From Pseudomonadota bacterium (lineage in GTDB: Bacteria; Pseudomonadota; Alphaproteobacteria; UBA2136; JAPKEQ01): DNA of 64,000 nucleotides. The DNA lies in contig JAYZXF010000017.1 in the NCBI GenBank assembly GCA_036141575.1, positions 78,077-142,076 on the forward strand, read 5' to 3'. Made by a program: the position numbers and the translations under genes. The notes below the pieces were generated by a model that was not told where the DNA came from, did not search any database, and saw only the letters and a program-made list of their open reading frames with translations. The stretch's first letter is position 1. Every line of letters begins with the position of its first letter. Positions 3,884 through 61,261 of this stretch are shown piece after piece.

Positions 3884-3921
3884 AAGAATCTCCATTGTCT
3901 AAAAAAAGGGAAGGGTGATAG

Positions 3922-3950
3922 ATCAAAATCACCCCTGTTGTATACGCCAA
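3922..3950 (-). promoter_or_regulatory. related promoter-like motif TTGGCGTATAC
   Basis: On the minus strand: TTGGCGTATAC (-35 at 3945-3950), 17-nt spacer, TTTGAT (3922-3927). Upstream of 3482-3883. Confidence 0.3.
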
Positions 3951-4029: not shown

Positions 4030-4263
4030 TTAGAAGGACTGGCCAATGGCTTTGGAAAGCGTGATGGTGTTTTCAGTCTGCTGCTGGATGAGTGCTGCAG
4101 CCAGCTTGGCTGGTGGCGTTGGTGCAAAGTTCACCATCAGGGCACTGCATTGACGCATAGGCGTAAAAACAAGTTGTTCTTGCGCTTGCCGTGTTACGTT
4201 GGCGTAAGCCTGCGTGTAAGTATGCATGGCTTGAAGAGTACCCAAAGGCGTAAATAGAGTCAT
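4030..4263 (-). CDS. hypothetical small protein (77 aa)
   Basis: ATG with 'gagagg' upstream. Hairpin 3994-4014 right after the stop. Preferred over the overlapping ORFs 3973-4257(+) and 4073-4462(-). Confidence 0.45.
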   Translation of the reverse strand: MTLFTPLGTLQAMHTYTQAYANVTRQAQEQLVFTPMRQCSALMVNFAPTPPAKLAAALIQQQTENTITLSKAIGQSF

Positions 4264-7670: not shown

Positions 7671-7840
7671 TAAATTTTCCTTATATGGTAGCGAGCTACC
7701 ATTACGGTTATTCATTTACCTATTAAATGTAGTATCGCACAGGCTGTGCTTTTGCACAAATGGAAATATTGCAGATGTGGAAGAATTTCAAGGGCTGAAA
7801 TCAAAAAAATATCAAAAAAATAAAGGTGACTTTGTTTTTG

Positions 7841-20140: not shown

Positions 20141-20345
20141 AAGAAGTCTTCGTGGTGCTTCATAAACGAGTGCGTAGTGAAGCGGAGCCAAAACCTTAAG
20201 AGGTTTTGAGCGGTTTAAAGCATTTAAAAATAAGGCGGAGCATTATTTTTGAAAGTAAGGGGTTTAAACCAAGACCATGCTTTGCGAGTTATCGCCTTTT
20301 TGGAGCAGCGTAGCGAATGAAAAAAGCGAGAACATGAAGCAAAGA
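20141..20345. repeat. structured intergenic repeat family, copy A
   Basis: Roughly 80% identical by eye to B 58370-58545 over about 180 nt. Hairpin 20188-20208. Confidence 0.75.
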
Positions 20346-20467
20346 ATTAAGAAATCTCTGATTGGAATTTATCCGCATATTTGCTATATTAAGAAGGTTA
20401 AGGGACGCGCATTCTGTAGCGTTCTTGGGGAAAAATAACAATTATAATGCGTTAAGGGAAACACTTC

Positions 20468-26485: not shown

Positions 26486-26818
26486 ATGCTACTCACAACA
26501 ACACCTTATGTTGAAGGTTACACCATTCGCCGTTACGGCCCAATGGTAGCCAGTGAAGCGGTCATGGGTACCAACCTGTTTAAGGATTACTTTGCAAAAG
26601 TACGTGATATTGTTGGTGGACGCTCTGGTGCGTTCCAAAATGCTCTTGCAGATGCGCGTGAATCTATTCTTCATGAAATCCAAGTGCAGGCTCAGCAATC
26701 TGAGTGTAACGCCATTATCGGTATTGATATTGACTACGGTGAGGTATCAGGTGGTGATAAGACAATGCTTCTTGTTGCTGCAACAGGTACAGCGGTTTAC
26801 ATTGAGCCGATTACTTAG
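26486..26818 (+). CDS. ybjQ: YbjQ/UPF0145 family protein
   Basis: 'TTTPYVEGYTI...VVGGRSGAF...NAIIGIDIDY...LLVAATGTAV' follows the UPF0145 pattern. Confidence 0.8.
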   Translation: MLLTTTPYVEGYTIRRYGPMVASEAVMGTNLFKDYFAKVRDIVGGRSGAFQNALADARESILHEIQVQAQQSECNAIIGIDIDYGEVSGGDKTMLLVAATGTAVYIEPIT

Positions 26819-26827
26819 TTTTTTGTA

Positions 26828-27100
26828 GCTTGCTTCCTGTCTTTTATTTTTCAAATATAAAATTTGTAAAATAAAATTCAACGCAAGCTAGAGTCTTGGT
26901 TTAAAACCTTCCTTGTAAAAACAGTACTCCGTCCTGCTTTTAGCTTTTTTAAACCGCCCAAAACGCCTGAACGTTTTGGTTCGGCTACTCGCCTCACACT
27001 CTCATAGGCCAACACTTCTATTGTGTCCTAGTACTTTGCGGAGCAAAGCGCAGCCGGCGCTTAAGGGCGCCGAGCGCAAAGGTACAAAGTAGGGTAAGCT
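26828..27100. repeat. structured intergenic repeat family, copy C
   Basis: Hairpin 26842-26876. Segment 26958-27040 is the reverse complement of B 58331-58409. Hairpin CCAAAACG/CGTTTTGG at 26958-26979. Confidence 0.75.
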
Positions 27101-29917: not shown

Positions 29918-30351
29918 TGATGCCTTGGTATTTCTTTGCAAGCTGGGCTGTTGTTGGTATTGCCATCTTTAACATTGCAGCAAAAAGCATTACAGGCCTT
30001 ACGCCAGCGCTGTTTAACATGCTCTACAGTGGTGTGGTGCTACTTGTGTCTATTAGCTACTTTGCGTTTAGACACTTTACAGGTGAGGCACCGTTTAACG
30101 TGCCAACAGATGCAAAAAGCTGGATGTATGTGATTCTTGCTGGTGTGGGTGTAAACATGATTAACCTTGGTTATGCCGAAATGTATGGCCGTGGTGTTGA
30201 AATTAGTATCGGTGCCAATGCCATTATTATGGCCAGCCTCGTAACCGCCACTCTTATTGGTGTATTTGTATTTAAAGAGCAACTGTCGATGATGAAAGGC
30301 CTTGGTTTATTCCTTGGTGTCATCGCCCTTATTTGCTTCATGAAAGGATAG
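29914..30351 (+). CDS. small polytopic membrane protein inserted in the pnt operon (EamA/DMT-like, weak)
   Basis: ATGA overlap with the pntAA stop. Its stop lies 2 nt before the pntAB ATG. Four or five hydrophobic helices. Confidence 0.6.
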
Positions 30352-30353
30352 AG

Positions 30354-30677
30354 ATGATGGAACTTTCAATGCTAACCGTACTGATTATGGTTTTTGTTCT
30401 GGCCTGCTTTATTGGTTACTTTGTTATTTGGAATGTAACGCCAGCGCTTCACACGCCGCTTATGGCTGTAAGTAATGCCATTAGTGGTATCGTTATTGTG
30501 GGTGCCATTCTGGTGGCAGGTACAGTGGTTTACACAGATGCTCAAGTGATGGGTATCGAGCTTTACAAAATTATCGGTTTCCTAGCGGTCTTCTTTGCAA
30601 GCATTAATATTTTTGGCGGCTTTACAGTCACGCGCCGCATGCTTGCGATGTTTAAATCTAAGTCAAAACCACGCTAG
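30354..30677 (+). CDS. pntAB: NAD(P) transhydrogenase subunit alpha part 2
   Basis: '[23 protein letters not shown]' and '[14 protein letters not shown]' are canonical PntAB motifs. AAGGA RBS. Confidence 0.9.
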
Positions 30678-30689
30678 GACATGGCTGCA

Positions 30690-30790
30690 AATGATCGCTT
30701 GCTCCACTTCCGTTGCTCATGTATCTCAAATACACTGCGCTACGGCTCTCGCAAGCCCTCATTTTCGCTCATGCCTACCATATTTTGAAA
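30690..30790. repeat. possible degenerate family copy (E) in the pntAB-pntB spacer
   Basis: 'gcttgctcc...tcaaata' and 'cgctacggctc' resemble copies C/D and B. Weak. Confidence 0.3.
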
Positions 30791-38188: not shown

Positions 38189-38656
38189 TTGGCTCATATG
38201 GATAAGGGCGCTATCGACAGACGCGGACTAGATGAAAGTACAGTGAACAAGCTCACTGAGGCTTACCGTATGGGTTGGCTCCATAATGTCCTGTCTCGTA
38301 TTACTCCTCTTACAATGCGTCGTCGTGATGATTACCTTAACATGGCAGACCTGTTTATTGATACACCTGAAGCAGCTCACAAGCTGTTAGATCGCTTTGA
38401 TGCAGACCTAGAAATGTTCTGCTCAGTGGCAGAAATTCAAGTAACAGAGCACATGACAAGCAAAACGGTTTCAGATGAGCTGAAAGCGCACGTTGAACTC
38501 TACAACGACATTGCTGGTGTTCTTTACGGTAAGTTTAAAGGTGACGTTGAAAAGCGTGATCCTATTCAAAGTCTCGCAATGACGCCGATTACAACGGATA
38601 GCACAAACCCGTTTATTGCAGAATTCATGAAAGAGAAATTCCCGAAAAAAAATTAA
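38189..38656 (+). CDS. hypothetical protein (155 aa)
   Basis: TTG at 38189 has GAGGG 9 nt upstream. The alternative ATG is at 38198. Confidence 0.5.
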   Translation: MAHMDKGAIDRRGLDESTVNKLTEAYRMGWLHNVLSRITPLTMRRRDDYLNMADLFIDTPEAAHKLLDRFDADLEMFCSVAEIQVTEHMTSKTVSDELKAHVELYNDIAGVLYGKFKGDVEKRDPIQSLAMTPITTDSTNPFIAEFMKEKFPKKN

Positions 38657-38724
38657 ACGGCGCCTTTAAGCGAAGTTTTATGGTATCTGTCTCGTGTTGT
38701 GATAATAAACTCTGCGCTCAGATT

Positions 38725-38890
38725 TTTCTTTGCTTGCTTTCCATCTTTTATTTTTCAAACATAAAGTCCAATGCAAGCTCTTGGAAAGCGTGAAGCATTC
38801 AACAGCATGGGCATTTTCAAGATAACCTTCACGGGGGCTATCATTTTACAAATTTTACATTTGAAAAATGATAGGGTGAGAGTGAAGAAG
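38725..38890. repeat. structured intergenic repeat family, copy D
   Basis: The left part resembles the left of copy C ('gcttgctttccatcttttatttttcaaacataaa'). Hairpin 38827-38887 is the reverse complement of the B hairpin, with different complementary outer stems. Confidence 0.7.
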
Positions 38891-38895
38891 AATAA

Positions 38896-40164
38896 CTATC
38901 TAAAATATCTACCCGCATGCAGTGTGAGGCCAACACCGACACTCCCAAACGCATCACCTGTTACCACATGTGCATGTGGAAAAGGCTCAAGCAGGGCTGC
39001 ACGAATCATTGGGAGTTTTGTTGAGCCACCAGTGAGGAATACGCTTGAAATTTGTTCGGCTGTCACGCCTGCATCATCAAGAGTTTCCTGTACTGTACGC
39101 TGCAATGAGTCACACGAATCAGACAAGCTCGGGCGAAGGTGATTGTTGTTTGTTACAGGAACACTTAGGCCTTTTTCAACAAAGTTCATATCAAGAATAT
39201 TCTCATCAGATGCAGACAGGGCAATCTTGGTTTCTTCAACCTTCATGGCCAGCGTGTGGCCGCTTTCATCCTCAAGAACGTTCAAATAGCGTTCAAGCTT
39301 GTCAGGGTCTAATGCATGGTTGAGTGTGTCTTCAACAAGGCGTACTGTCTTTTGGTTATACAGCGTGTGAATTTTTGGCCATGTCGCCAGCGTAAAGAAC
39401 AGCCATGGCGCAATTTCAATATCTTTATCAGAAAACGGTGCACGCATAAGGCCTTTATGACCAAGCTCAGGCATTGCACACATCAGGCTGAGAGCTTTAT
39501 CAAAGTCTGTACCACCAATATGTACACCGTGGTTAGAAAGAATGTCTTCTGAGCGGTTCTCTTTGTGTTTATGCTCTGGTGACAGGCGAATCACTGTAAA
39601 GTCAGACGTACCACCGCCAAGGTCAATAATCAGAGCGAGTTCTTCTTTCTTGAGCGTATCTTCGTAAGTATAAGCAGCGGCCAGAGGCTCAGGCAGGAAG
39701 GTTACATCTTTAAAGCCTGTGCTTTTTACAATCTCTTCCAGCATGTTTTGCGCCTCAGCGTCAGCCTTAGCGTCCCCATCAATAAAGAAGACCGGTCGAC
39801 CAATAGTTGCACGCGTGAGCTCTTCACCTGCGGTGGTGTCTACATGCTTTTTAATGTCGGCAATAAAGCTCCCAAGAATATCTGTAAAGGCAACTTGGCG
39901 GTTTCCAATACGTGTGCTTTCACGGGCAAGGTCTGTCCCTAGAATACTTTTAAGAGCGCGCATAAAGCGTCCATCATCCCCGCGTGTGTAGGCTTTTACA
40001 GCTGATCGACCAAAGCTTCTTGTGCTGTCATCATCAATAAAAATGGCACTCGGAATAGTGTTTTCATCGCCTTCCAAGTTACAAAGTGTTGCTGTGCCGC
40101 CTGTGAATAGGCCTGCTGTTGAATTGGATGTGCCGAAATCAATACCGCAAACTGGGGACGTCAT
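38896..40164 (-). CDS. Hsp70-family actin-like ATPase (YegD-like)
   Basis: Phosphate-1 'GIDFGTSNS', phosphate-2 'IIDLGGGTSDFTVI', and adenosine motif 'VFLTGGSTKLPMI'. No substrate-binding domain. Confidence 0.85.
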   Translation of the reverse strand: MTSPVCGIDFGTSNSTAGLFTGGTATLCNLEGDENTIPSAIFIDDDSTRSFGRSAVKAYTRGDDGRFMRALKSILGTDLARESTRIGNRQVAFTDILGSFIADIKKHVDTTAGEELTRATIGRPVFFIDGDAKADAEAQNMLEEIVKSTGFKDVTFLPEPLAAAYTYEDTLKKEELALIIDLGGGTSDFTVIRLSPEHKHKENRSEDILSNHGVHIGGTDFDKALSLMCAMPELGHKGLMRAPFSDKDIEIAPWLFFTLATWPKIHTLYNQKTVRLVEDTLNHALDPDKLERYLNVLEDESGHTLAMKVEETKIALSASDENILDMNFVEKGLSVPVTNNNHLRPSLSDSCDSLQRTVQETLDDAGVTAEQISSVFLTGGSTKLPMIRAALLEPFPHAHVVTGDAFGSVGVGLTLHAGRYFR

Positions 40165-40624: not shown

Positions 40625-41143
40625 ATGGGAGAAACTTTAGGCTATATATCACTTATCCTTTATGTAGTCGCATTATTATTTCATAAGCCACGCCATAGCT
40701 TTATTTGCTTTATTATCGCGAATCTCTTCTTTATTGCACAATGTATTGTTTCAGAAATGTATGTTGCAGTTATGGGACCTATTGGGCTAACAGCTCTTAC
40801 TGTCTTTATTTTAAATGTTAAGAAGAAAAATTGGACTGCTTATGTAAAAGGTTATGCAACTTTTACTGTATGTGTTGGGGTGTATTTTGCGTCTAGTGTA
40901 AGTGAGTATATTGTTGTAAGTGCTATGTGTATAGATGCTCTATCTCGCCTAGGTAGAGACCATTTTTACCTATTTAGAACCTTGTCTTCTTTAGGAAATA
41001 TACTATGGTTTACATCTTTTTACATAGAGGGAGTAACTTCTATTATGTTGATGAGCGCTTTGATGGTTTCTTTAAATGTGATTTATATGGTCAGACATGC
41101 GTTGAGAGATGAGGTGCTCTTTAAGCAAAAGGTAAATGAATAA
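40625..41143 (+). CDS. polytopic membrane protein in an AT-rich segment
   Basis: Five hydrophobic helices. 60-nt lines hand-counted at 27-37% GC. Confidence 0.55.
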   Translation: MGETLGYISLILYVVALLFHKPRHSFICFIIANLFFIAQCIVSEMYVAVMGPIGLTALTVFILNVKKKNWTAYVKGYATFTVCVGVYFASSVSEYIVVSAMCIDALSRLGRDHFYLFRTLSSLGNILWFTSFYIEGVTSIMLMSALMVSLNVIYMVRHALRDEVLFKQKVNE

Positions 41144-41268: not shown

Positions 41269-42108
41269 ATGAGGTTATTTGCAATTGTATGTATGTGTTG
41301 CGCACTGTTTGTCAGTGTGGCAGCCGTTTCTCAAACACGTGCAGGTGAAGGACTTTCACGCCAACTTCAATCTGTAAAATCAATGCTTGAGAGTTTCCGT
41401 AGCCATATAGATGGTGAAATCGCTCGTGTGGATAGTGAAATTAATACAGTGGATAGCAGAGTAGATGCTGCAAATACTAGAATGGATACCATGGACGGTC
41501 GTATGGATGGTATAGACACTCAGATTGGTGGCCTAAACTCGAGTATTAATTCACACGATAACCGTATTACAGCCCTAGAAAATGGGGAAACAGGTGTGCA
41601 AGTTTACAGAAACTGTGCACAACGTAATGTGACATGGGGCAGTGGAAATTGCCGAGGTACGCAGGGGCCCATTCCTCATGGCACAAGTATAACGGTTAGA
41701 GACACCGTTCAAGGTGATATTTGTACAAATAGATATCAATATGTTGGCTATGCTGTGTATAGTTGTAATGATGGTGTGGTAACGCGTAACGGGCAAGCTT
41801 GTCAGCGAACAGATTTCTACAATGAAAATCTATGTGAATCTGGCAGTGGTGGCGATAGCTATGCAAACTGTCAAGGTACAACAAGGACATGGTCAGAAAC
41901 GTATAATGGTCTAACTTCAACCTGTTCTGGATCAATTGGTTCTGTGCCACATGGTACAACCGCTACAGCAACAGACCCTAGAACTGGTTGTGACCGTCGA
42001 GACTTCACAGGTGGATCATCGACTTGGCTATGTGATAATGGTACTCTCAGAAGACAAGGTACTGCAACATGTAGAACCTGGGGCAGCTGGGGTAGCGACT
42101 GTCGATAA
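41269..42108 (+). CDS. secreted coiled-coil family member with 2 x 4-Cys modules (F3)
   Basis: Signal peptide, 'GEGLSRQLQSVKSMLESF', an Lpp-like repeat 'VDSEINTVDSRVDAANTRMDTMDGRMD', and Cys modules at 41614-41802 and 41869-42072. Ends in 'DCR'. Confidence 0.75.
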   Translation: MRLFAIVCMCCALFVSVAAVSQTRAGEGLSRQLQSVKSMLESFRSHIDGEIARVDSEINTVDSRVDAANTRMDTMDGRMDGIDTQIGGLNSSINSHDNRITALENGETGVQVYRNCAQRNVTWGSGNCRGTQGPIPHGTSITVRDTVQGDICTNRYQYVGYAVYSCNDGVVTRNGQACQRTDFYNENLCESGSGGDSYANCQGTTRTWSETYNGLTSTCSGSIGSVPHGTTATATDPRTGCDRRDFTGGSSTWLCDNGTLRRQGTATCRTWGSWGSDCR

Positions 42109-42288: not shown

Positions 42289-43374
42289 ATGAGAGCTTTT
42301 CCGATAGTAATGATTTTATCCTGTTTAGTTTTACTAACAGGCGTAGCTGGTGCGCAGAGCACGCGCTCTGGTGAAGGTATTGCAAGGCAGTTAATGTCTG
42401 TTAAAAGTATGATTGAAAATTTTGCTGATAACATCCGCACACGTGTGCAGACCGTTGAAAATGAAATGGATGCGGTAGAAACACGTATGGATACAGTGGA
42501 AGCTGATGTTGCAAGCGTACTTGCAACCGTTGCAACACATGAAACACGGTTGAGCTCGCATGATTCATCTCTATCTGGCCATGGTCGCCGTATTCGAGCA
42601 CTCGAAGAGCGCGAGCCAACAGGTGGTGGAGGTAGTACAGCACCAACACCAAGTGCGTGTAACGGTAGAAACATGTCATGGGGAGGGGGATGTAGTGCTT
42701 ATGTACAATCTCTACCTGATGGGGGTGCTGTCGTTCTGAGAGATCAAGTTGCTGGTGATGTATGTACAAATAGACAGCAGTATGTTGGTCAAGTTCGTGT
42801 GGCTTGTAACAATGGTCAAATTTCTACAAAGAACGCCTCTTGTGAGCTGAGAAACGTTTATAACGCAACTCAGTGTAGTGGTGGCACAACACCAACACCG
42901 AAGAAGAGATGTGCAGCAAAAGATGTGAGCTGGAAGAACAATGCTGGTACAGTCACATGTCGTGGTAGAATTGTTGCAGCTGATCATGATTCAACACGTC
43001 GTGTAACATTTGATAACAACAATACAAAACCTGGTGGAAAACGTATTACTGGTGCAGCAAACTTTATTTGTGACAACGGTGTGTTCAAACGTACATCTAA
43101 GAACTGTAAAGAAACTGTTAACCCTGAGCCTCCTAAGCCTTGTGCAGGCAAGTCTGTGAGTTGGACTAGTAATGGTGTTACATGTCGAGGAACTGTTTCG
43201 AATACGCCACATGGTTTAACTTCAAGTGTAACAGACCCTAACCGAACACGAGAGTGTGAGAACATTATAGATACAACAGGTAGCGCAAGCTTCAGGTGTA
43301 CAAATGGATCGTTCAAGAAGGTCTCTGGCTCTTGCAGGCAGGTACGGAGTCGTCGAACAGGTGACTGTCGATAA
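42289..43374 (+). CDS. secreted coiled-coil family member with 3 x 4-Cys modules (F4)
   Basis: Signal peptide, 'GEGIARQLMSVKSMIENF', a coiled coil, and three Cys modules between 42658 and 43335. Ends in 'DCR'. Confidence 0.75.
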   Translation: MRAFPIVMILSCLVLLTGVAGAQSTRSGEGIARQLMSVKSMIENFADNIRTRVQTVENEMDAVETRMDTVEADVASVLATVATHETRLSSHDSSLSGHGRRIRALEEREPTGGGGSTAPTPSACNGRNMSWGGGCSAYVQSLPDGGAVVLRDQVAGDVCTNRQQYVGQVRVACNNGQISTKNASCELRNVYNATQCSGGTTPTPKKRCAAKDVSWKNNAGTVTCRGRIVAADHDSTRRVTFDNNNTKPGGKRITGAANFICDNGVFKRTSKNCKETVNPEPPKPCAGKSVSWTSNGVTCRGTVSNTPHGLTSSVTDPNRTRECENIIDTTGSASFRCTNGSFKKVSGSCRQVRSRRTGDCR

Positions 43375-50848: not shown

Positions 50849-52951
50849 GTGATGGCTATAAAAAGAACAAGAAATATCGTCCTAAGCGCTGTTTTAACGG
50901 CGGTTTTCTTGCATTCTGAAAGCCTTTACGCACAAAATTTCCCAGATAGCGCTCGTACAGAAAGCATTCTAAAGAGCTTAGAGCCTGTCAAAACACCTGA
51001 TGCAGACCTTGAGAGAAGCACGCTTCCAGATAAACCTGAGCCTATAGCCACACAACCAAAGGCACAGGAAAAGTCTGACAGCGAGCCACAAAAGGCTGAT
51101 ACAAAAGATGAAAAACTTCCTGACGTAGAGACAGAGGATATCAGTAGCGGTCTTGGTATCGCCAAAATTCAAAAAGCTGTGCCGTCTGAGCCTGAGTTTG
51201 AGGTAAAAACCATTGAGGTGAAGGGAAGTACTGTATTTGATGAGCGGGCACTTCGTCCATACCTTGCTGCGATGGAAGGAGACTGGCAAACCTTGTCTAA
51301 ACTTAAAGGCCTAGCCGACACACTGACACGCTTGTACCAATCTGAAGGGTACATTTTGTCGCGTGTGGTGGTGCCAGCGCAGGAAATTACATCTGGCCAC
51401 GTTGTTCTACAAGCGGTGGAAGGCAGCATTCAAGATATTCACTTTGTGGGTGATCTCCCAGAAGAGGGACGCTTGATCCAGAAGTATGCAGAAGAAATTA
51501 AAAAGTCAGTGCCTCTTAACATTAAGCAACTTGAGCGCTCAACGCTTCTTATGAATGACCTACCGGGTCTGAGCGCAAAGGCGGTACTTAGCCCTGCAAA
51601 AGATGTGACACAGCGTTTTGAAACGGGTGTAGATACAACGCAGCAAAGCTATAAGCTTCGTCAAACGCTCAAAGCGATGGGGCTTACTGAAAACCAAATT
51701 GGTAACTATGTGGATATTGTTGGCGCTGTACAGGCTGCTAATGTGAAGCAAGTTCAAGCGACAGACCTATCTCTCATCCTGCAAGGTATGGGTATTCCTG
51801 ATAACCAACGTAAGATTCTTGTAAAGAAAGCTGTTGAAGCTTCAGACCGTAACCGCTTGCAAAGCAATACACAGCAAGTGACAGAAGCACTCGTGTCTCT
51901 ATCTGACCTCAATATTTACATTGAGAGCAAAGAGAAAACAGCAAGCCTAGCCATTGATAACTTCGGAACCAAGTTTGTGGGCCCAATTCAAGTGACGGGT
52001 GCGCTGAGTATTGCCCATGACGATGAGGCCCGTAGTGAAACCTCTCTAGGCTTTAGTACATCTGCTGATATGAAAGAGATGAAGTTTGGTGAAATTAAGC
52101 ACAAACGCCAAATTGGCGATAAAGGAACCACTGTAGAAGGGACATACAGTATTGCACGCTCTGAGCCGGGCAGCACGCTTGCTGACCTTGAGTTTGAAAG
52201 TGCATCTGATGTAATTGGCGTAACGGTAGAACATCCTGTAATCCGTAGCCGTAGTAAAAACCTAAAGGTTCGTGCCACAGCTGATGCGCGTAGCAGTGAG
52301 GTGAAAACACTTGGTGACCGCTTTAGTAAAGATACCACGCGTAGTGTGCGCCTTGGTGCAACATATGACTTTGCTGATGAGTACAAAGGAATCAACCTTA
52401 TTGATGTGGAATTGAGTAAAGGCCTAGATATTCTTGGTGGTGACGATAGATCAACAACGTCACGTGCAGATGGCCAGCAGGACTACACAAAGGTTGCTGC
52501 TCAGCTTTCGCGTCTGCAACGACTTGGTAAGTTTACCAACCTTCTCGCCACTGTACGCGGTCAGTATGCCTTTAACCCACTTCTAGCGAGTGAAGAGTTT
52601 AGCTTTGGTGGCGCGTCTCAGGGGCGTGGATTTGACCCAGCAGAGCTTACGGGTGACCATGGTATTGGCGGTACACTACAGCTTTCGTATGACTTGCCAA
52701 TGTGCCGTAAGTGCCTGAAAGATATTAGTATGTACGGTTTCTATGATGCGGGTATGGTCTGGGAAGAAAATGGCGGTACTGGTGATGATAGAAGCTTTGC
52801 TTCAAGTGCGGGTCTTGGTGCAAGTATGAACTTTACAGATAAGCTTAGCGGTAAGATTGAGTTTGCCAAGCCTTTGGTTGGTTCGCGTGGCAATGATAGC
52901 GAAGATGCAAAAGCACCTGTGGTGTTAATGCGCCTAAAAGGACAATTATAA
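50849..52951 (+). CDS. two-partner secretion outer-membrane transporter (ShlB/FhaC/HecB family TpsB)
   Basis: Signal peptide. POTRA 'IEVKGSTVF...LYQSEGYILSRVVVPAQEITSGHVVLQAVEG'. C-terminal beta-barrel. Directly upstream of tpsA. GTG at 50849 or ATG at 50852. Confidence 0.85.
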   Translation: MMAIKRTRNIVLSAVLTAVFLHSESLYAQNFPDSARTESILKSLEPVKTPDADLERSTLPDKPEPIATQPKAQEKSDSEPQKADTKDEKLPDVETEDISSGLGIAKIQKAVPSEPEFEVKTIEVKGSTVFDERALRPYLAAMEGDWQTLSKLKGLADTLTRLYQSEGYILSRVVVPAQEITSGHVVLQAVEGSIQDIHFVGDLPEEGRLIQKYAEEIKKSVPLNIKQLERSTLLMNDLPGLSAKAVLSPAKDVTQRFETGVDTTQQSYKLRQTLKAMGLTENQIGNYVDIVGAVQAANVKQVQATDLSLILQGMGIPDNQRKILVKKAVEASDRNRLQSNTQQVTEALVSLSDLNIYIESKEKTASLAIDNFGTKFVGPIQVTGALSIAHDDEARSETSLGFSTSADMKEMKFGEIKHKRQIGDKGTTVEGTYSIARSEPGSTLADLEFESASDVIGVTVEHPVIRSRSKNLKVRATADARSSEVKTLGDRFSKDTTRSVRLGATYDFADEYKGINLIDVELSKGLDILGGDDRSTTSRADGQQDYTKVAAQLSRLQRLGKFTNLLATVRGQYAFNPLLASEEFSFGGASQGRGFDPAELTGDHGIGGTLQLSYDLPMCRKCLKDISMYGFYDAGMVWEENGGTGDDRSFASSAGLGASMNFTDKLSGKIEFAKPLVGSRGNDSEDAKAPVVLMRLKGQL

Positions 52952-53016
52952 ACAACTGACAGGCGGAAACATTAATAAAACCGCTTATAAGAACTTAAGG
53001 AAAGTAAAACATTAAC

Positions 53017-56000
53017 ATGCTGAAAATGTTGAGGGAAAGTAAGAGTCTAACGGCCCGTTATATCCGTGGTCTGCTTTCTGCTGTGCTGACATTTTCACCG
53101 GTACTTTCTTATGCTGGCCCAACTGGCGCGGCAGTTCAAAGTGGCAATATCATTATTTCTCAGCCAGATGCAGCAAGTACACTTATCCAGCAAGGTACCC
53201 ATAAAGGGATCATTAACTGGCAAGACTTTTCCATTGGTGCAGGTGAGAGTGTTCAGTTCCAAGTGCCTTCAGCTCAGGCAAAAACATTAAACCGTGTAAT
53301 CGGTCATAATGTTTCTGATATCCAAGGCGCACTCAGCAGTAATGGACAGCTTTATCTTGTAAACCCGAACGGGGTGATCTTTGGGGCTGGCTCTCGCGTA
53401 GATGCGGCAGGCCTCCTGGTTACAACTTCTAATGTTTCAGATGAAGATTTCCTAAATAACTTTTTGAATTTACAAGAGGCTTCTGAAGGTTCTGCCATTG
53501 TGAACAATGGTGATATCTCGATTAAAGATGGCGGCTTTGCCTTGCTTGTTGCCCCACAAGTGGTGAACAACGGAACCATTATTGCGCGCTTTGGTAAAGT
53601 GGGTATTGGTGCAGGTTCTAAAGGAACCATTGATCTTTATGGTGATGGGTTGATTCAGTTTGAACCATCAAGCGATGTTGCAAATCTTGTGAATAACGGC
53701 GTCATTCGCGGTGGTTATGTAGAGCTAACCGCAGCAGATGTAGACGCCCTCCTTAAAGGTGTTGTGCGTGTAAACGGTTTTGTAAGTGCAGACCATGTGG
53801 TGATTGAAGGGGGCGAAAACTCTATTGTACGCCTGAATGGTTCAGTCATAGCGCAGCGTGAAGCTGAGCAAATTGGTGGTCGCGTAGATGTACTGGGTGA
53901 CCTAGTTTCTCTACTTGAAAATACTGATATTGATGTTTCTGGTGAACTTGGCGGTGGTCAAGTCCATGTGGGTGGAGACTACCAAGGTAAAGGTACGCTT
54001 AAAACAGCTACAACTACATATATGACTGCAGGCGCAGAGATTGATGCCAGTGCTATCCGTATGGGTGATGGTGGTAAAGTGATTCTTTGGGCTGATGGCA
54101 CCACACACTTTGCAGGCGATATTGTCGCGACTGGTGGTTCTGATGGCGGTGATGGTGGTTTTGTTGAAACCAGTGGTAAGGGGCAACTTGCCTACCGTGG
54201 TGCAGTGGATGTAACTGCTGAAAATGGTGATATTGGTTCACTGCTTCTTGACCCTGAAAATATTACAATTTCATCTGATCCATTTACACCAACTGATCTG
54301 GCAGGTGGTGTGTATTGGTTTGACCCAAGCGCCGTTGGTGGTGTGAACACAACGGGTAGCAATGTGACTCAGATTAATGACCTGATTCCAGGCGTGGGTG
54401 GTTCTAATAACGCCACGCAAGGCTCTGCAGCTCTTCAAGCTGAACTTGTAGCAGCAGGCCTTAACGGTCGTGATGCGCTCGATTTTGATGGCGCAGATGG
54501 TTATGACATGGCCAACAATGCATCTATCAACACCTCAGGAAGTACCGACCGTATTATCCTCATTGCCTTTAGAACAGGCGCAGACGTAACAAGCCAGCAG
54601 TACCTGTATGAGCAGGGTGGTGGCTCTAACGGTTATGGTATGTATATTGAGGCAGGGCAACTTGTTGTCGCGGGTTGGCGTAACAGTAGCGGTAGCTGGA
54701 ACAACTACGCAACAACTGCAGTTACACCAAATACCACTTACGTGGCAGGTTTAAACCTAGATAACAACACCATGAGTGCATGGGTAAACGGCGATAAGTT
54801 CCAAACATATAACAACACCAATGGCCAAAATGCCCATAGTGGTGGTATTGACCTCGGTCGTAACGGAGATACCCGTGACGCTTCAGGGAGCCTTGGCGCT
54901 TGCTGTAACTTCCTTGGTCAGATAGGTGAAGTAATTCAGTACAACACAGCCGCAACAGATGCTGAAATGCAGGAAGTGTCTCAGTATCTTGCGCTTCAGT
55001 GGGGTGCAACGCTAGATTCACCAGGCACAGATTACACAATTTCACTTGAGAACCTAGAGGCACAGCTTGCTGGCGCAAACATTACCCTTCAGGCTGAAGA
55101 TAACATCACCATTGATGATATTGCTGATGATAGCCTAGACCTTGCCATGGACGGCACAGGCAGCTTTACACTGATTGCTGATAATGATGCAGACGGTGTG
55201 GGTACCATTAGTATGGACGCCTCAGACGCCATTGTGACCCAAGGTGGTGATATCACCATGACGGGTGCCGTGATTGATGTGAATAATATTACAAGTAACG
55301 GCGGTGACGTAACACTCAGCGCAACAGCAGCCCTTACAGCCGATGTAATTAATGCCGGTGCAGGTAACATTGCCCTGACAGCTGACAGCAATAACGATAG
55401 CGCAGCTGTGGCTCTTACAACGTCTGATCTGACTGCTGATGGCATTACGCTAACTGGTGGGTCGGATAATGATGATATTCTCAACCTCTCTGGCACCATT
55501 AGCAGTGGAGCGGGGGGCTTAAGTCTCAATAATTTTGCAAGTGGTGACCTCGATAACGCCACAATTGATACAAATGGCCAAGCCTTTAACAGTGCCATTA
55601 ACTTTACGCTAAGCGGCGCAGGGGTAAGTACGATTCAAACTGGCGGTGGTGATATTACGCATTCTGGAACCTTTGATGGTACGGAAGGACTTATTTTAAA
55701 CGCTGGCGCTGGTAATATTGACCTCAGTGGTGCAGCTGGTGGTGGTACAGCTCTAACCAGCCTCACAGCAACAGGTTCTACTATTCAGCTGGATGATGTG
55801 ACAACGGTTTGGCATCAAAACTATACGGGTGCAACCACAACCAATGGCGACCTTGCTGCCACGGGTGCAGGTAATGTGCGCTTTGTAAATAATGTTACGT
55901 TGGGTGCGGATACCAACATCACAACCAATACTGGAGATATTGACTTTGGCGGCACGGTTGATGGTGGGCAAGCGCTTGTGCTAAATTCGACATCTGGTGA

Positions 56001-57291
56001 TTTGATTACGACAGGTGACTTTGGTGGCGGTGCAGCACTGACATCTTTGAATGTGGGCACAGCCAATGCCGACCTACAAGAAGTGACAACAACGGGCGGC
56101 ATTACAGTTTCTGGTATTACAACATATAACGATGACCTTAACGCTGGCGGCGCATTAAATCTATCAGGTACAGGTACGCTTGCTGCTGATACAGTCTTCC
56201 AAAGTACGGGCGGCGGTATTGTAACGCTTGGCGGCACTCTTAATGGTGCCCAAAACCTAACGGTTACAACAGGTGGGCTTTTAAATCAGGGCGCAACAAT
56301 TGGGGGCGGTACACGCCTTACAAGCCTTACTTTAAATGGAGCAAACACACAGCTTACCGGTGATATCTACACAGCGAATGCTCTCAGCTTTGGCCTGAAT
56401 ACCAACCTTGGTGCACGTGTGGACTCTCTAGATACGGTCATATTTAACAACGCCCTAACGCTTGCGGGTGCAAGTACTGTTGTAGGAGCTAATGGTATTA
56501 CCTTTAACGATACCGTTAATGGGGCACAAGATCTAACTGTAGAAAGTTCAGCAGGTGACATTAGCTTTGCAGGTAATGTGGGGAATAGTTCTGCCCTGAA
56601 TACGCTGACAATTACAGATACAGGCAACCTTACATTTGGTGCCGATGTGACCCTTGCAGCGCTTGACCAGCAAGCTGGCCGTGCAACAACAAGCCTTGGC
56701 TCTAACTTTAACAGTACTGGTAACGTAGATATTCTTGGTGTGAATATTAATGGTGATATTCTCAGCGCTGGGGATGTGATGTTTAATGTAACAGGGAGCG
56801 TCACAGGTCAATTGTTTGCAAACAGCTTTGCACTCCAAGCAGAAAACAGTGACCAAACCGGTGAAGTGAATAGTATTGGCGGCTTGGATGCTCTAAAAGA
56901 GATTCAGTTTACGCAGTTTGGTGCAGGCCCACACTTGTTTAACGGCTTTATTCTACCGTATGAAACCATTATTCAAGCCACATCTACTGGATATGAAACA
57001 ACGCAAATTAACCGTGCGGGTCGCTCGCTATCTGGTGGCTTTGTAAGAACCATTTCAGATCTACCAGATCTTGAGATTCTTAAGAGTGCAGGGCGTGCAC
57101 GTGTAAGCCGCATTGCGCCAACAGATGCCAGCTTTGCTAAACTTGCTCTAGGTTCAGATAATAGCCTCGTTGTGAACCCTTTCCTTATGGACTTTAGAAG
57201 TGTGGATATTGAACCTGGCACAGAGCTCTTCTATAACCCATACCCATACCTAGAAAAGAGCGTGTGGAACTGGCTCTCTTACAGAGACTAA
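53017..57291 (+). CDS. filamentous-haemagglutinin-like TpsA exoprotein with internal LamG-like domain
   Basis: TPS domain 'INWQDFSIG...LNRV...LSSNGQLYLVNPNGVIFG', beta-helix repeats, and a ConA/LamG-like insert around aa 480-650 ('LYEQGGGSNGYGMYIEAGQLVV'). Confidence 0.88.
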   Translation: MLKMLRESKSLTARYIRGLLSAVLTFSPVLSYAGPTGAAVQSGNIIISQPDAASTLIQQGTHKGIINWQDFSIGAGESVQFQVPSAQAKTLNRVIGHNVSDIQGALSSNGQLYLVNPNGVIFGAGSRVDAAGLLVTTSNVSDEDFLNNFLNLQEASEGSAIVNNGDISIKDGGFALLVAPQVVNNGTIIARFGKVGIGAGSKGTIDLYGDGLIQFEPSSDVANLVNNGVIRGGYVELTAADVDALLKGVVRVNGFVSADHVVIEGGENSIVRLNGSVIAQREAEQIGGRVDVLGDLVSLLENTDIDVSGELGGGQVHVGGDYQGKGTLKTATTTYMTAGAEIDASAIRMGDGGKVILWADGTTHFAGDIVATGGSDGGDGGFVETSGKGQLAYRGAVDVTAENGDIGSLLLDPENITISSDPFTPTDLAGGVYWFDPSAVGGVNTTGSNVTQINDLIPGVGGSNNATQGSAALQAELVAAGLNGRDALDFDGADGYDMANNASINTSGSTDRIILIAFRTGADVTSQQYLYEQGGGSNGYGMYIEAGQLVVAGWRNSSGSWNNYATTAVTPNTTYVAGLNLDNNTMSAWVNGDKFQTYNNTNGQNAHSGGIDLGRNGDTRDASGSLGACCNFLGQIGEVIQYNTAATDAEMQEVSQYLALQWGATLDSPGTDYTISLENLEAQLAGANITLQAEDNITIDDIADDSLDLAMDGTGSFTLIADNDADGVGTISMDASDAIVTQGGDITMTGAVIDVNNITSNGGDVTLSATAALTADVINAGAGNIALTADSNNDSAAVALTTSDLTADGITLTGGSDNDDILNLSGTISSGAGGLSLNNFASGDLDNATIDTNGQAFNSAINFTLSGAGVSTIQTGGGDITHSGTFDGTEGLILNAGAGNIDLSGAAGGGTALTSLTATGSTIQLDDVTTVWHQNYTGATTTNGDLAATGAGNVRFVNNVTLGADTNITTNTGDIDFGGTVDGGQALVLNSTSGDLITTGDFGGGAALTSLNVGTANADLQEVTTTGGITVSGITTYNDDLNAGGALNLSGTGTLAADTVFQSTGGGIVTLGGTLNGAQNLTVTTGGLLNQGATIGGGTRLTSLTLNGANTQLTGDIYTANALSFGLNTNLGARVDSLDTVIFNNALTLAGASTVVGANGITFNDTVNGAQDLTVESSAGDISFAGNVGNSSALNTLTITDTGNLTFGADVTLAALDQQAGRATTSLGSNFNSTGNVDILGVNINGDILSAGDVMFNVTGSVTGQLFANSFALQAENSDQTGEVNSIGGLDALKEIQFTQFGAGPHLFNGFILPYETIIQATSTGYETTQINRAGRSLSGGFVRTISDLPDLEILKSAGRARVSRIAPTDASFAKLALGSDNSLVVNPFLMDFRSVDIEPGTELFYNPYPYLEKSVWNWLSYRD

Positions 57292-58062: not shown

Positions 58063-58159
58063 AGCGGCCTCCTGTGTCTAAAGTGAAGTTAAAGATAGTT
58101 CTAGTGAATAAATTATGGTGATGGTGAGGTGTTTATTCAAGATGTGTTGTTTTTTTACT

Positions 58160-58545
58160 CTTCACTTTCATTCCACCATTTTTCAAATTTAAAATTTGTA
58201 AAATGGTGGACCCCGTGAAGTAAGTCTTGGTGCGCAAGTTTTTAAGTATTTTAGGTCTGCTTACATCCCTAAAATAGCTCTTGTGCACCGCCGTAGCGTC
58301 TGAACGCTACGGCTCGCTTTTTCAGCTCGCGAAGTACTAGGAGATAACAGAGATATTGGCCTGATAGAGTGTGAGGCGAATAGCCGAGCCAAAACCTTAA
58401 GAGGTTTTGAGCGGTTTGAAGCAGTTAAAAATAAGACAGAGGATTATTTTTACTATAAATGCTTTAAACCAAGACTGTACTTTGCGGGCTATCGTCTTTT
58501 TGAAGTAGTGAAACGAATGAAAAAAGCGAGAGCGTAAAGCAAAGA
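58160..58545. repeat. structured intergenic repeat family, copy B (longest)
   Basis: AT-rich hairpin 58173-58209 inside the outer stem CTTCAC/GTGAAG (58160-58220). Hairpin GCCGTAGCG-tctgaa-CGCTACGGC. Hairpin 58389-58409. Internal 9-bp inverted repeat 58223-58231 / 58468-58476. Homologous to copies A, C and D. Confidence 0.8.
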
Positions 58546-58601
58546 GAGAAAAAGAGAGTCTAGGAAGCGCCAAGGTGCAGGCTTGATCTCCAACATATAA
58601 A

Positions 58602-58645: not shown

Positions 58646-60676
58646 TTAGTTAAACACAGCAGTTGGGCCTTTGGCACCTGTGCCGCCTTTAAAACGTGCT
58701 TTTTTGAAAGCTGCGTTTGAGCCAGCGCCTTTGCTACCTTTAAAGCTACCGCCTTTGCCCTTAAATGGCTTGTTGCCAGCAGATGAACGATCATCGCCAT
58801 CACGCTTATTGAAGCCACCGCTCATGCGCTTACCAGCTGGTGTACCGCGTCCGCGTGTACCGTAAGTGCGTGCGCCATCATCCTTTTTGAATGGGCTCTT
58901 TTTACGTGTTGAGTCTGTTTGCGTCATGCGCTTCTTCTGCTTGTCGTGCATTTTAGCTGGTGCGCGAGACTCACTGCGATCTTCTCCGAAAGAACGGTTA
59001 CCATCGCGGTCGCCGAAGCTGCGCTTCTTGTCGCCGTAAGAGCGGTTACCATCGCGGTCGCCAAAGCTGCGCTTCTTATCGCCGAAAGAGCGGTTACCAT
59101 CGCGGTCGCCAAAGCTGCGCTTCTTGTCGCCGAATGAACGGTTGCCATCACGGTCACCAAAGCTGCGCTTCTTGTCGCCGAATGAACGGTTGCCATCGCG
59201 TTCGCCAAAGCTACGCTTCTTGTCACCGTATGAACGGTTGCCATCACGGTCACCAAAGCTGCGCTTCTTGTCACCGTAAGAGCGGTTGCCATCGCGGTCA
59301 CCAAAGCTACGCTTCTTATCACCGAAGTCGCGCTTGTTACCAAACTCACGCTTGTCGCCAAAGTCGCGCTTTTCAAATGAACGCTCACCATCTTTACGGA
59401 AGCTCTTACGCTCGCCGTCTTTTTTGAATGAACGTCTGTCATCTCTATCGCCGAAGCTACGCTTCTTATCGCCGTATGAATCACGGTTACCATCTTTAGC
59501 GCCGTAGCCGCCTTTGCGGTGTGATTTTGCCTTACGATCTTGGAATGTACGCTCTTTGCGAGGCTTAGATGTTGGTGCGTTAGATGTTTCACCACCCCAT
59601 ACAAGGCGTTCAATTGCTTTCCACTTGCCGTTTTCTTTCTTGGTAATGTACGCCAGAGCGTGACCCGTAGCACCGGCACGTGCTGTACGGCCAATACGGT
59701 GGATGTAATCTTCTGGGCATTGTGGAAGGTCATAGTTAATCACGTGCTGAATGTGAGGAATATCAAGACCACGTGCCGCAACGTCTGTTGCCACAAGGAT
59801 TTGGTATTTCTCTTTTCTGAATGCATCTGTTACGCGCTCACGTTTGTTGTGACGAAGGTCACCGTGGATTGCAGCTGCTTTAAAGCCTTCTTTCTTCAGC
59901 TTATCAGCCATGCGCTCAGTGCCGTACTTTGTCTTTACGAACATGATGATTGAGCCTTCACGGCCTGAGAGTTCACCAAGCAGGTCGTCGTACTTCTCAG
60001 CATCAGTCACGCGTTTTGTTTGGTGATCAATGTTTTCAGCAGGCTTTGTTGTTGCGCCAATGGCAATACGCTCAGGGTTGTTGAGGTAGTTCTTCGCAAG
60101 AGACATGATGTTCTTTGGAAGTGTTGCACTAAATAGAAGCGTTTGGCGCTCGGCTGGCATGTGGCTCACAATTTCTTCAATCTGAATGCTGAAGCCCATG
60201 TCGAGCATGCGGTCTGTTTCATCAAGAACCAGGAAGTGGCAGTTGTTAAGCTTGAGGCTGCGACGGTTCAGGTGGTCGTTAATACGGCCTGGTGTACCAA
60301 CAATAATACGTGGACGGAATGAAAGGCTTTTCAGCTGTTTGTGCATAGAGTCACCACCAATAAGTAGGCATGTGTTAATGCCAGAGCGGTGAGGGAGGAA
60401 GCCTTTAATGTTGTCTTGTACCTGCGCGGCAAGTTCACGTGTTGGTGTCACAACAATAGCTGTGTCTTCTTCGTTTTCAAGGAGGTGGTTCACCATCGGA
60501 ATACCGAAAGCACCTGTTTTACCCGTACCTGTTTGGGCAGAACCAAGGATATCGCGACCTTGCATCGCGAAAGGAATTGTTTTTTCTTGAATTGGAGTTG
60601 GAGATTCAAAACCCAGTTTTGTTAGGGCATGAGTCAAATCTTCAGAAAGCCCAAGTTGGGCGAATGTTTGCGTCAT
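58646..60676 (-). CDS. DEAD-box RNA helicase (RhlE-like) with repetitive basic C-terminal tail
   Basis: Q-motif 'GFESPTPIQ', motif I 'AQTGTGKT', motif II 'DETD', 'SAT', and 'HRIGRTARAG'. The tail has 7 x 'GDKKRSFGDRDGNRS[YF]'. Confidence 0.92.
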   Translation of the reverse strand: MTQTFAQLGLSEDLTHALTKLGFESPTPIQEKTIPFAMQGRDILGSAQTGTGKTGAFGIPMVNHLLENEEDTAIVVTPTRELAAQVQDNIKGFLPHRSGINTCLLIGGDSMHKQLKSLSFRPRIIVGTPGRINDHLNRRSLKLNNCHFLVLDETDRMLDMGFSIQIEEIVSHMPAERQTLLFSATLPKNIMSLAKNYLNNPERIAIGATTKPAENIDHQTKRVTDAEKYDDLLGELSGREGSIIMFVKTKYGTERMADKLKKEGFKAAAIHGDLRHNKRERVTDAFRKEKYQILVATDVAARGLDIPHIQHVINYDLPQCPEDYIHRIGRTARAGATGHALAYITKKENGKWKAIERLVWGGETSNAPTSKPRKERTFQDRKAKSHRKGGYGAKDGNRDSYGDKKRSFGDRDDRRSFKKDGERKSFRKDGERSFEKRDFGDKREFGNKRDFGDKKRSFGDRDGNRSYGDKKRSFGDRDGNRSYGDKKRSFGERDGNRSFGDKKRSFGDRDGNRSFGDKKRSFGDRDGNRSFGDKKRSFGDRDGNRSYGDKKRSFGDRDGNRSFGEDRSESRAPAKMHDKQKKRMTQTDSTRKKSPFKKDDGARTYGTRGRGTPAGKRMSGGFNKRDGDDRSSAGNKPFKGKGGSFKGSKGAGSNAAFKKARFKGGTGAKGPTAVFN
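58988..59323 (-). repeat. 7 x 48-bp in-frame tandem repeat inside the helicase gene
   Basis: Units 58988-59035, 59036-59083, and so on to 59276-59323, each encoding GDKKRSFG[DE]RDGNRS[YF]. Degenerate relatives extend to about 59500. Confidence 0.9.
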
Positions 60677-60869
60677 ATCAATTTTCTTTCATGTGCGGCA
60701 GGATGTCTCCCTGCGGCATGTCTCAGTTTTGGGGTATGCGACCGAGAGCGAAAACGATTTTTATTAAGACGCAAGCGGTGGCATCAGTGGCATCTATTGC
60801 CGACTGGAATTATTTTTTGTTGAAGAAGGCGGGGGCACTTGCTCCCGCCTTTTCACAAAGGGAAACGAA

Positions 60870-61076
60870 TTAGTTTACCTGTAGGTTTGTCGCAGAAGTT
60901 TTGCCGCGACTCTCTTCAAGTTCAAATGATACTTTTTGACCATCTTCTAGAGTTTTCAGGCCAGCTTTTTCTAGAGCTGTAATGTGCACAAACACATCGT
61001 TGCCGCCGTCTTCAGGTTGAATGAAGCCGTAGCCTTTAGTTGTGTTAAACCATTTTACTGTGCCAGTTGTAGACAT
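60870..61076 (-). CDS. cspA: cold-shock protein (CspA family)
   Basis: '[31 protein letters not shown]'. Confidence 0.95.
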
Positions 61077-61261
61077 TATCTTAGTACTTTCTTTGCAGGA
61101 GAGGTATTTTCCTGCGGATCTTTAATTGATGAGTCTATTCTTGATCTTTTGGATTACCTTTACCCTGAGATCATTTTCCTAAAATAGGAGCCTGAAAAAA
61201 CTCTACTGACTCTGTGTATAGGCTATGTTGAATACAATTACAAGGGAGGAATGAAAATTAA

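Follow-up and report, generated by a model that had tools for sequence, protein, structure and literature searches.

Copy D, located between two converging genes in a 64,000-nucleotide (nt) stretch of an alphaproteobacterial genome (contig JAYZXF010000017.1 of assembly GCA_036141575.1, positions 78,077 to 142,076; hereafter the window), is probably a pair of independent members of a small palindromic repeat family that is confined to this lineage, a new family of an already known kind that resembles miniature inverted-repeat transposable elements (MITEs) and repetitive extragenic palindromes (REPs). Both members, D-left and D-right, lie in the spacer at 38657-38895 between gene 1 on the plus strand and an Hsp70-family gene on the minus strand, which bears out the location between convergent gene ends (open reading frames, ORFs, 38189..38656 + and 38896..40164 -) that was given in an earlier reading made from the sequence alone. 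Units were scored with two covariance models, R1 built from the three copies with an A+T-rich apex (AT-apex copies) and R2 built from ten units. The features of the locus are:

38198..38656, plus strand, convergent gene 1 (152 aa from ATG; 155 aa from TTG at 38189)
38722..38789, plus strand, D-left, a unit of the copy C subtype with an internal deletion (R1 E 9.4e-5; R2 E 0.0038)
38790..38809, no strand, junction of 20 nt between the unit tails (a third GTGAAG at 38790-38795 could pair instead with CTTCAC at 38827-38832)
38812..38897, minus strand, D-right, an intact repeat unit (R1 91.7 bits, E 2.6e-19; R2 61 bits, E 9.3e-10)
38896..40164, minus strand, convergent gene 2, Hsp70 family, YegD-like (Pfam HSP70 3.6e-23; TAG stop at 38896-38898)

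The two units of locus D

D-right is oriented sense to the Hsp70-family gene and shares the two bases at its 5′ end (AG) with the TAG stop codon. Its hairpin (38827-38887), which has 61 nt in two tiers and begins 8 nt past the stop, reads CTTCAC-GGGGG-CTATCATTTT-A-CAAAT-TTTAC-ATTTG-A-AAAATGATAG-GGTGAGA-GTGAAG. The outer stem is CTTCAC/GTGAAG, followed in the minus-strand reading by an internal loop with 7 nt in its 5′ strand and 5 nt in its 3′ strand; the inner stem (38838-38874) is A+T-rich and consists of 15 bp with one mismatch and a 5-nt loop, its arms (38838-38853 and 38859-38874) being 94% complementary. The apex corresponds to 38843-38869, a degenerate 3′ box ATCTTGAAAATGCC to 38810-38823, and there is extra GATA/TATC complementarity beyond the 6-bp outer stem. 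As RNA, a 73-nt stretch of the minus strand folds with -19.8 kcal/mol (z-score, z, -6.9; 0 of 200 shuffles as good) and the plus strand with -20.3 kcal/mol (z -5.7; no shuffle as stable), while the DNA folds have z of -6.4 and -7.0, and the two-tier hairpin forms on either strand. The sequence and these folds agree with the earlier description of the right part as complete, in the opposite orientation, and equipped with the stems CTATC/GATAG and CTTCAC/GTGAAG.

D-left, oriented sense to gene 1, aligns end to end in two covariance models (38722/38726-38784/38789, plus strand). It comprises, in order, a leader ATTTTTCTTT, an outer stem (GCTTGC 38732-38737 with GCAAGC 38773-38778), an internal loop, an inner remnant at 38745-38766, and a 3′ box TCTTGGAAAGC at 38779-38789, of which TCTTGG is 38779-38784. 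The inner remnant had been described as a truncated module; it does match the left half of copy C in the orientation of C, but it is part of a whole unit (38722-38789) and not a mere fragment. About 15 nt are gone from the 3′ arm of the apex, and the identity to copy C is 84% over 43 nt (38723-38765 versus 26819-26861). The fold energy is not significant (z -1.2), and D-left is probably a decaying copy or relic that contributes little.

The two units stand tail to tail with 20 nt between them, each sense to the gene that it follows, and share an inverted 21-nt segment that is 81% complementary across a distance of 88 nt. The junction contains a direct repeat (AGCGTGAAG/AGAGTGAAG), and no second copy of its 20 nt (38790-38809) exists within the window.

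A family of two-tier palindromes

The window contains the 27-nt apex ATTTTTCAAATnTAAAATTTGTAAAAT three times (26846+, 38843-, 58178+), versus none expected by chance, and the three copies are identical except for one loop base. The three AT-apex copies align without gaps with 98.4% of the cells paired (0 of 500 shuffles as good), versus only 35-46% in a control in which the partners were slid by 1-3 columns. Eight of the 21 stem pairs have changed on both sides: CTATC/GATAG, CCACC/GGTGG and CTTTT/AAAAT in the inner stem, and CTTCAC/GTGAAG versus GCTTGC/GCAAGC in the outer stem. The inner stem also carries a conserved T-T mismatch.

Model R1 additionally recovers D-left, two units whose inner hairpin is quite different, 20274-20350 (minus) and 58474-58550 (minus), and at the borderline 30691-30762 (plus; E 0.047). 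Model R2 scores 6 units in the 64 kb of the window, a minimum for the family there, and 8 in loci of relatives. Besides those of locus D, the hairpin units of the window are:

20264..20354, minus strand, copy A (R2 82.7 bits)
26818..26904, plus strand, copy C (R2 85.9 bits), which begins at the YbjQ TAG stop and has an 8-bp outer stem TAGCTTGC/GCAAGCTA
58150..58235, plus strand, copy B1 (R2 74.9 bits), with the same outer stem as D-right
58464..58554, minus strand, copy B2 (R2 85.9 bits), with a different apex, tail to tail with B1

A single unit is about 70-90 nt long and follows a common plan: a T-rich leader, an outer stem of 6-8 bp, an internal loop of 7 nt plus 4-5 nt, a variable inner hairpin, TA, and the box (G)TCTTGG(TTTAAA), which was found only beside such hairpins. 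The outer stem is CTTTGC/GCAAAG or a covarying variant, with four of its six pairs compensated across the ten units. No ORF lies inside the repeat units. Three of the window units are on the plus strand and three on the minus strand, and the GC skew is uniformly positive. Tail-to-tail pairs occur at three loci (D, B1/B2, and 3847-3930 (+) with 4157-4243 (-) of relative contig L092), with spacings from 20 nt to about 230 nt. Nine of 12 units have a TA after the 3′ arm, and the C hairpin has TA on both sides. The family has no match in Rfam 15 at the gathering score, and no unit matches at E up to 5; a literature search with the motif strings returned nothing relevant.

The hairpin unit is also the head of a longer element (210 nt or more), namely in copies A, B2 and C and in several of the relatives' copies:

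20150-20354, minus strand, long element in the window
26818 to at least 27040, plus strand, long element in the window
58300-58554, minus strand, long element in the window
L090 1613-1830 and 4572-4786, L092 3847-4062, and L011 11790-12000, long elements in relatives

Behind the hairpin, the long element comprises a long-range stem (GGTTTAAAGC/GCTTTAAACC), an A+T hairpin, another hairpin that covaries (CAAAACC/GGTTTTG versus GCAGNC/GNCTGC), and a conserved GGCTCGGCTAYTCGCCTCACACTC..AGGCC. It is kept down to the 78% relative described below, with 14 of 39 consensus pairs compensated, and has no evident terminal inverted repeats. The D units consist of the hairpin-plus-box part only, without the long body.

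Turnover among relatives

The window was compared with Logan contigs of run SRR26496208, which are 100% identical to it, and with relatives of about 95% nucleotide identity (GCA_035092365.1; L008, L090, L092 and L099), about 90% (the large contig of GCA_035092205.1; L093 and L104), about 78% (JGI 33000604xx; L011-L018) and about 75% (ERZ27267009; L091). Units are present at some orthologous sites and absent at others among the 95%, 90%, 78% and 75% relatives. The same-strain Logan contigs end inside D-right, C and A, as is expected for repeated or palindromic DNA.

The 95% lineage has both D units. In the 78% lineage (L011), the spacer is 144 nt long and contains a short A+T hairpin CTTTCATTTTTAAAATAAAAG 21 nt past a TAA stop, followed by the canonical bidirectional terminator AAAAAAAACAGCGCATGAGCGCTGTTTTT. 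The short hairpin is a nearly perfect palindrome and a weak match to the family (R1 E 0.065; R2 E 0.4). It aligns about equally well with D-right, which has the same offset from the stop, and with D-left, which was the choice of MAFFT and places it after the terminator T-run; therefore, it does not show which unit is older. In the 90% lineage (L104), there is no unit: the TAA stop is followed by a NUDIX gene and then by the terminator AAAAAGCGCCCAGAGGGGCGCTTTTC, and 27 kb of this lineage contain no R2 unit. Because a canonical bidirectional terminator occupies this spacer in the relatives that lack units, the units of the window's lineage stand in the place of an ordinary terminator, for which they may or may not substitute.

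Two other differences at this locus were noted. The NUDIX hydrolase gene (L104 4312-4836), located between the Hsp70-family and 152-aa genes, is not found in the window or in the 95% and 78% lineages, and a remnant of it was sought in D and throughout the window with none found. The 95% lineage has 78 nt that are absent from the window between two CATAAA repeats (window 38676-38684 versus L008 11488-11566). The 78% and 90% relatives retain a part of this stretch (TTTGGAAAYGCAAAGTATTGGA.ATACTTAAG), and therefore the lost sequence may have been a functional 3′ element of the 152-aa gene.

Turnover is also apparent at other loci. The window and the 95% lineage both have copy C, in the region of about 400 nt after YbjQ; the 90% lineage (L093) has TAA and the terminator AAAAAGGCTGCCTACGGGCAGCTTTTTT instead. 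Copy A is absent in the 90% lineage (L093), and in the 95% lineage an extra unit, abutting the stop codon of the DUF6776 gene, stands tail to tail with A, which is alone in the window. B1 and the B2 hairpin are absent in the 95% lineage (L090), and the 75% relative has only a short B2. The filled and the empty B1 site alike have a T-run ahead of the insertion.

The cleanest case is a related palindromic insertion, element E:

30677..30775, plus strand, element E, 99 nt (R1 E 0.047)

Element E has imperfect inverted ends of 25-26 nt (76%) with TA on both sides (30675-76 and 30776-77). Such long ends were found in E alone; terminal complementarity in D-right and C is only 6-8 bp. E lies within the final codons of the upstream pnt gene (30333..30677), alters the C-terminus, and creates a TAG stop. 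It is identical in the 95% lineage (L092) and absent in the 90% (L093) and 78% (L011) lineages. Among the loci compared, no filled and empty pair is clean enough for a TA duplication to be read. The turnover and the structural covariation seen in the relatives speak against the D element being simply an ancestral spacer with neither mobility nor structural conservation.

Stop codons, terminators and conservation

Four units directly adjoin a stop codon (C, D-right, L090 4699-4786 and L092 3847-3930); in every case this stop is TAG, as it also is for E, whereas TAG accounts for 14 of the 60 stops in called genes and the unit-free orthologues of the YbjQ, Hsp70-family, DUF6776 and pnt genes end in TAA. 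Read-through or recoding of TAG was considered and rejected: the frame is open for 46 codons at D and closes after 13 at YbjQ/C, inside the hairpin. Because the frames close differently and the length between stop and hairpin varies between copies, there is no consistent read-through extension. A promoter in the apex was likewise rejected, as the match of 9 of 12 positions is no better than that of shuffles.

Elsewhere in the window, canonical G+C-rich terminators (GCCCC/GGGGC) are frequent and the rule. The terminator scan found no terminator-like site in the D spacer (38657-38895) or after YbjQ, where copy C lies; the sequence-only reading had stated that neither of the D genes has another obvious terminator. 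That reading had further proposed a bidirectional terminator or insulator; the lack of another terminator is compatible with such a role, but neither unit has a G+C-rich stem and a U-tract. The D units are not canonical terminators, because their stems are A+T-rich and interrupted by loops and no U-tract follows; the tail is poor in U, the tail sequences being GGUUAUCUUG on the minus strand and AAGAAUAACU on the plus strand. Directly upstream of D-left is one further feature:

38710..38727, plus strand, candidate remnant of the ancestral bidirectional terminator (CTCTGCGCTCAGA followed by TTTTT, with a 4-bp stem left; read by eye)

When compared with AAAAAAAACAGCGCATGAGCGCTGTTTTT of L011 and AAAAAGCGCCCAGAGGGGCGCTTTTC of L104, this segment appears probably to be what is left of the ancestral terminator; the scan does not call it a terminator.

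The D spacer is identical to that of the 95% lineage at 237 of 239 positions (99.2%) and E at 133 of 133, versus 83.7-94.1% at third codon positions and about 95-98% in most other spacers. In this small sample, the conservation of D and E argues for constraint, or at least against free decay. A role for the D units as 3′-end hairpins is plausible because their spacer is 99.2% identical where third codon positions are 84-94% identical.

A model for the spread and role of the units

The units probably spread as non-autonomous, MITE-like DNA with a tendency to insert at a stop-codon TA or beside the T-run of a terminator. On the simplest reading, the TA of the stop codon together with the first G of the element would give TAG. 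At locus D, the units would have displaced the ancestral bidirectional terminator, and each would be transcribed as a hairpin in the 3′ untranslated region (UTR) of its own gene, where its most likely role would be that of a barrier to 3′ exonucleases, of weak or factor-assisted termination, or of translation insulation after the stop.

Several observations weigh against a mobile family with such a role. No transposase (TnpA, TnpB or Y1_Tnp/RAYT) and no integrase was found among the 30 window ORFs scanned. D lacks a clean empty site with a target duplication, and the ends of the units are ill-defined. In some cases of absence the body is retained and the hairpin alone seems to have been deleted (L090 at B2; the window at the DUF6776 stop), so part of the turnover may be due to palindrome instability rather than transposition; palindrome deletion as well as insertion contributes to it. 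The apex pattern gave only six single, unrelated matches in 185,579 representative genomes, and a relaxed pattern gave 71 single matches in JGI metagenomes, none with the flanks of the family; because the apex is absent from these collections, the family appears to be confined to this little-sampled lineage. The GGUUAUCUUGAAAAUG tail after D-right is a poor U-tract, and, where genes are in tandem, two units are sense and two antisense. G-U intermediates number 0 among the three AT-apex copies and only 2 among ten units, and compensatory changes in a DNA palindrome can come from template switching without selection on RNA. The high conservation could belong to a locally low-divergence tract, as the adjacent 152-aa gene is also little diverged.

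Alternative explanations

It is possible, if somewhat unlikely, that the units are selfish repeats without present function, their position at 3′ ends merely tolerated and their conservation due to recent insertion or to a low-divergence tract. The decay of D-left (z -1.2), the loss from the window of 78 nt of conserved spacer beside it, the frequency of hairpin deletions and the 2:2 orientation in tandem contexts are all compatible with selfishness. What argues for something more is that 2 of the 372 positions of D and E taken together are changed relative to the 95% lineage (99.5% identity), versus about 3% over seven other spacers and 6-16% at third codon positions, and that the canonical terminator has been lost at two loci where a unit is the only replacement.

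An unlikely extension of the model is that the family is a mobile "stop-and-terminate cassette", which homes to stop TA or terminator T-runs, brings TAG, displaces the terminator and is kept as a 3′-end module, or else a single-strand transposon with a guide-RNA-like scaffold for a body. A related idea, that of a structured functional RNA or of a single-strand-DNA transposon similar to IS200/IS605, with D as two left-end hairpins, is quite unlikely. It could account for the multi-hairpin long form of at least 210 nt with 14 compensated pairs, a form that is kept down to the 78% relative and has a hairpin near one end and no evident terminal inverted repeats, and for the T-run that precedes B1 in the filled and the empty site and the conserved T-T mismatch. 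It is weakened by the absence of any Rfam match even at E up to 5, by the absence of a TnpA, TnpB or Y1 protein among the ORFs scanned, by the orientation of 3 plus to 3 minus under a uniformly positive GC skew, and by the TA on both sides of E and C, which fits a cut-and-paste MITE better.

That D is an ordinary bidirectional terminator or insulator that evolved locally, an ancestral and non-mobile spacer, is improbable. The absence of U-tracts, the A+T-rich stems, the canonical terminators elsewhere in the window and in the L011 and L104 spacer, the recurrence of the unit at unrelated loci with its flanks in register, and the lack of a unit at D in the 90% lineage all stand against it, even though the spacer lies between convergent stops with no other terminator present, is 99.2% conserved versus the 95% lineage, and has in the 78% relative a short AT hairpin at the same 21-nt offset from the Hsp70 stop.

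The sequence-only reading likened D to the terminal inverted repeats of a miniature element. The comparison with a mobile element is broadly right, but that D-left and D-right are the two inverted ends of one element, as in a REPIN-like doublet, is very unlikely: their subtypes differ and one of them has an internal deletion, the window has no second copy of the 20-nt interior, pair members occur singly in relatives, pair spacing ranges from 20 to about 230 nt, and each unit is already a complete palindrome with its own flanks. The inverted arrangement (21 nt at 81% complementarity, 88 nt apart) and the recurrence of tail-to-tail pairs at three loci are what a single element would explain. Least probable of all is that the A+T-rich palindromic apex is the site of a dimeric DNA-binding or nucleoid protein and the hairpin incidental, as might be supposed from an apex that is identical in three copies (one loop base aside) where the stems just below differ at 8 positions, since those stems covary, which a duplex operator would not need, related units have quite different apices, the sites are at gene 3′ ends or in long spacers and not at promoters, and the apex fits no Fur, CRP, TyrR or IHF consensus (by eye).

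Flanking genes and other features of the window

Gene 1 has no Pfam or NCBIfam match in a profile search. It is kept in four lineages and called as 152 aa in relatives, and its third codon positions are more diverged than the first two (identities of 99.3, 99.3 and 94.1% at positions 1, 2 and 3 versus the 95% lineage). The Hsp70-family protein of the window is MEC9292349.1, and its gene matches NCBIfam PRK11678 below the cut-off. A 123-aa ORF (38771..39142, plus strand), which extends across the D hairpin and on to the strand opposite the Hsp70-family gene, is almost certainly spurious and is to be removed from the annotation.

The apex pattern also caught an unrelated repeat, a perfect palindrome (ATTTTTCAAATC....GATTTGAAAAAT) on metagenome contigs of 53-66% G+C (L021, L027, L036, L040, L043, L045-L048, L050, L053, L056, L059, L061, L063-L065, L068, L073, L075, L080, L084 and L089). 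One of its flanks is a short G+C-rich hairpin (often TCGCTTCGCGACGA, with variants in some contigs); the other, in most contigs, consists of ACCGAAAC and TTCACT-type repeats.

Of the 30 window ORFs scanned, 19 have no Pfam match at E 0.001 or better. At 58935-59511 (minus coding), at least nine tandem 48-nt repeats lie in the part of a DEAD-box helicase gene that encodes the C-terminus, the product of which differs in length by lineage (676, 660 and 704 aa) and has its nearest named homologues in metagenome-assembled genomes of Alphaproteobacteria and Rickettsiales. A cold-shock-domain gene just upstream of the helicase has a sub-threshold match to the cspA thermoregulator (60822-61168, minus; 50.2 bits versus a gathering score of 78; E 8e-10), in a spacer that is 98.3% identical to the 95% lineage. 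A RuBisCO-like large subunit (5967-7715, minus; form III/IV-like, below curated cut-offs) is fused to an N-terminal helix-turn-helix (Xre/RstR-like), an unusual combination. Two genes on the plus strand (41269-42108 and 42289-43374) have repeated segments in common (41347/42373 and 41698/42739) and probably encode paralogous coiled-coil, cysteine-rich proteins, in a region that is strongly diverged between lineages (60% identity at 40625-41143). A two-partner secretion pair is located at 50849-57291.

If the hairpins take over 3′-end formation, terminator predictors would miss many transcription-unit ends in genomes of this kind. The repeats would also be of use in strain typing and would cause breaks in assemblies.

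Comparison with known systems

Intrinsic terminators and the "ribosome termination structure" (PMC7518266) are similar to D-right in that a stable hairpin stands 8 nt past a stop at a convergent junction; D-right differs in its A+T-rich stem, its 7 x 5 internal loop, its lack of a U-tract, and a sequence that is common to unrelated loci. Integron attC sites also have a two-tier hairpin with an unpaired spacer and a variable tip after an ORF, but the outer stems of the D family (CTTCAC/GTGAAG, GCTTGC/GCAAGC and CTTTGC/GCAAAG) are not RYYYAAC/GTTRRRY, the genes that flank D are syntenic housekeeping genes in four lineages, and no integrase is encoded by the window ORFs scanned.

The REP/BIME/REPIN repeats of gamma-proteobacteria, which are mobilised by RAYT, resemble the D family as extragenic palindromes located after stops or between convergent genes, in inverted pairs and mosaics. 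In Escherichia coli, REPs are transcribed into 3′ UTRs, protect the upstream mRNA and can attenuate transcription. The D unit is longer (at least 61 nt versus about 35 nt for REP, within a range of 20-40 nt for the class), the conserved 5′ GTAG of REPs precedes the stem only in copy C, and there is no RAYT in the window. The REPIN doublet of like REPs is not matched by the D pair, which is made of different subtypes whose members are single in relatives. The ERIC/IRU elements of enterobacteria and Yersinia are likewise imperfect palindromes (about 70-130 nt) in transcribed intergenic regions, but they have no sequence similarity to the D family and form a single long hairpin without the internal loop or the TCTTGG box. 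For REP/BIME, ERIC and Correia elements, 3′-end roles of the kind proposed above are on record (PMC2229807), as they are for structures just past stop codons (PMC7518266); ERIC affects mRNA stability in a manner that depends on its orientation to the flanking mRNA, and RUP targets TA (PMC2229807).

The QMITEs of Coxiella, the Correia/NEMIS elements of Neisseria and the pneumococcal RUP are, like the D family, short, non-coding, multi-copy sequences with stable stem-loops and TA at or near their ends, and share with it insertion at the extreme 3′ end of genes, altered last codons or stops, and presence or absence between strains. The differences are that those MITEs have defined inverted ends of 20-30 bp where the D units have 6-8 bp of terminal complementarity, that the D family has a two-tier hairpin with a conserved base and a variable apex and also heads an asymmetric element of at least 210 nt, and that no cognate transposase, as would be expected for a MITE, is found among the 30 window ORFs. 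QMITE1 and QMITE2 overlap the 3′ ends of functional genes, pntAA included (PMC5896051), and element E has inserted into a pnt gene here; the Coxiella QMITEs are the closest published parallel. The pattern known from Coxiella, Neisseria and enterobacteria, in which repeats colonise gene ends, change TAA to TAG and replace terminators, appears to extend to an uncultured, probably host-associated alphaproteobacterium.

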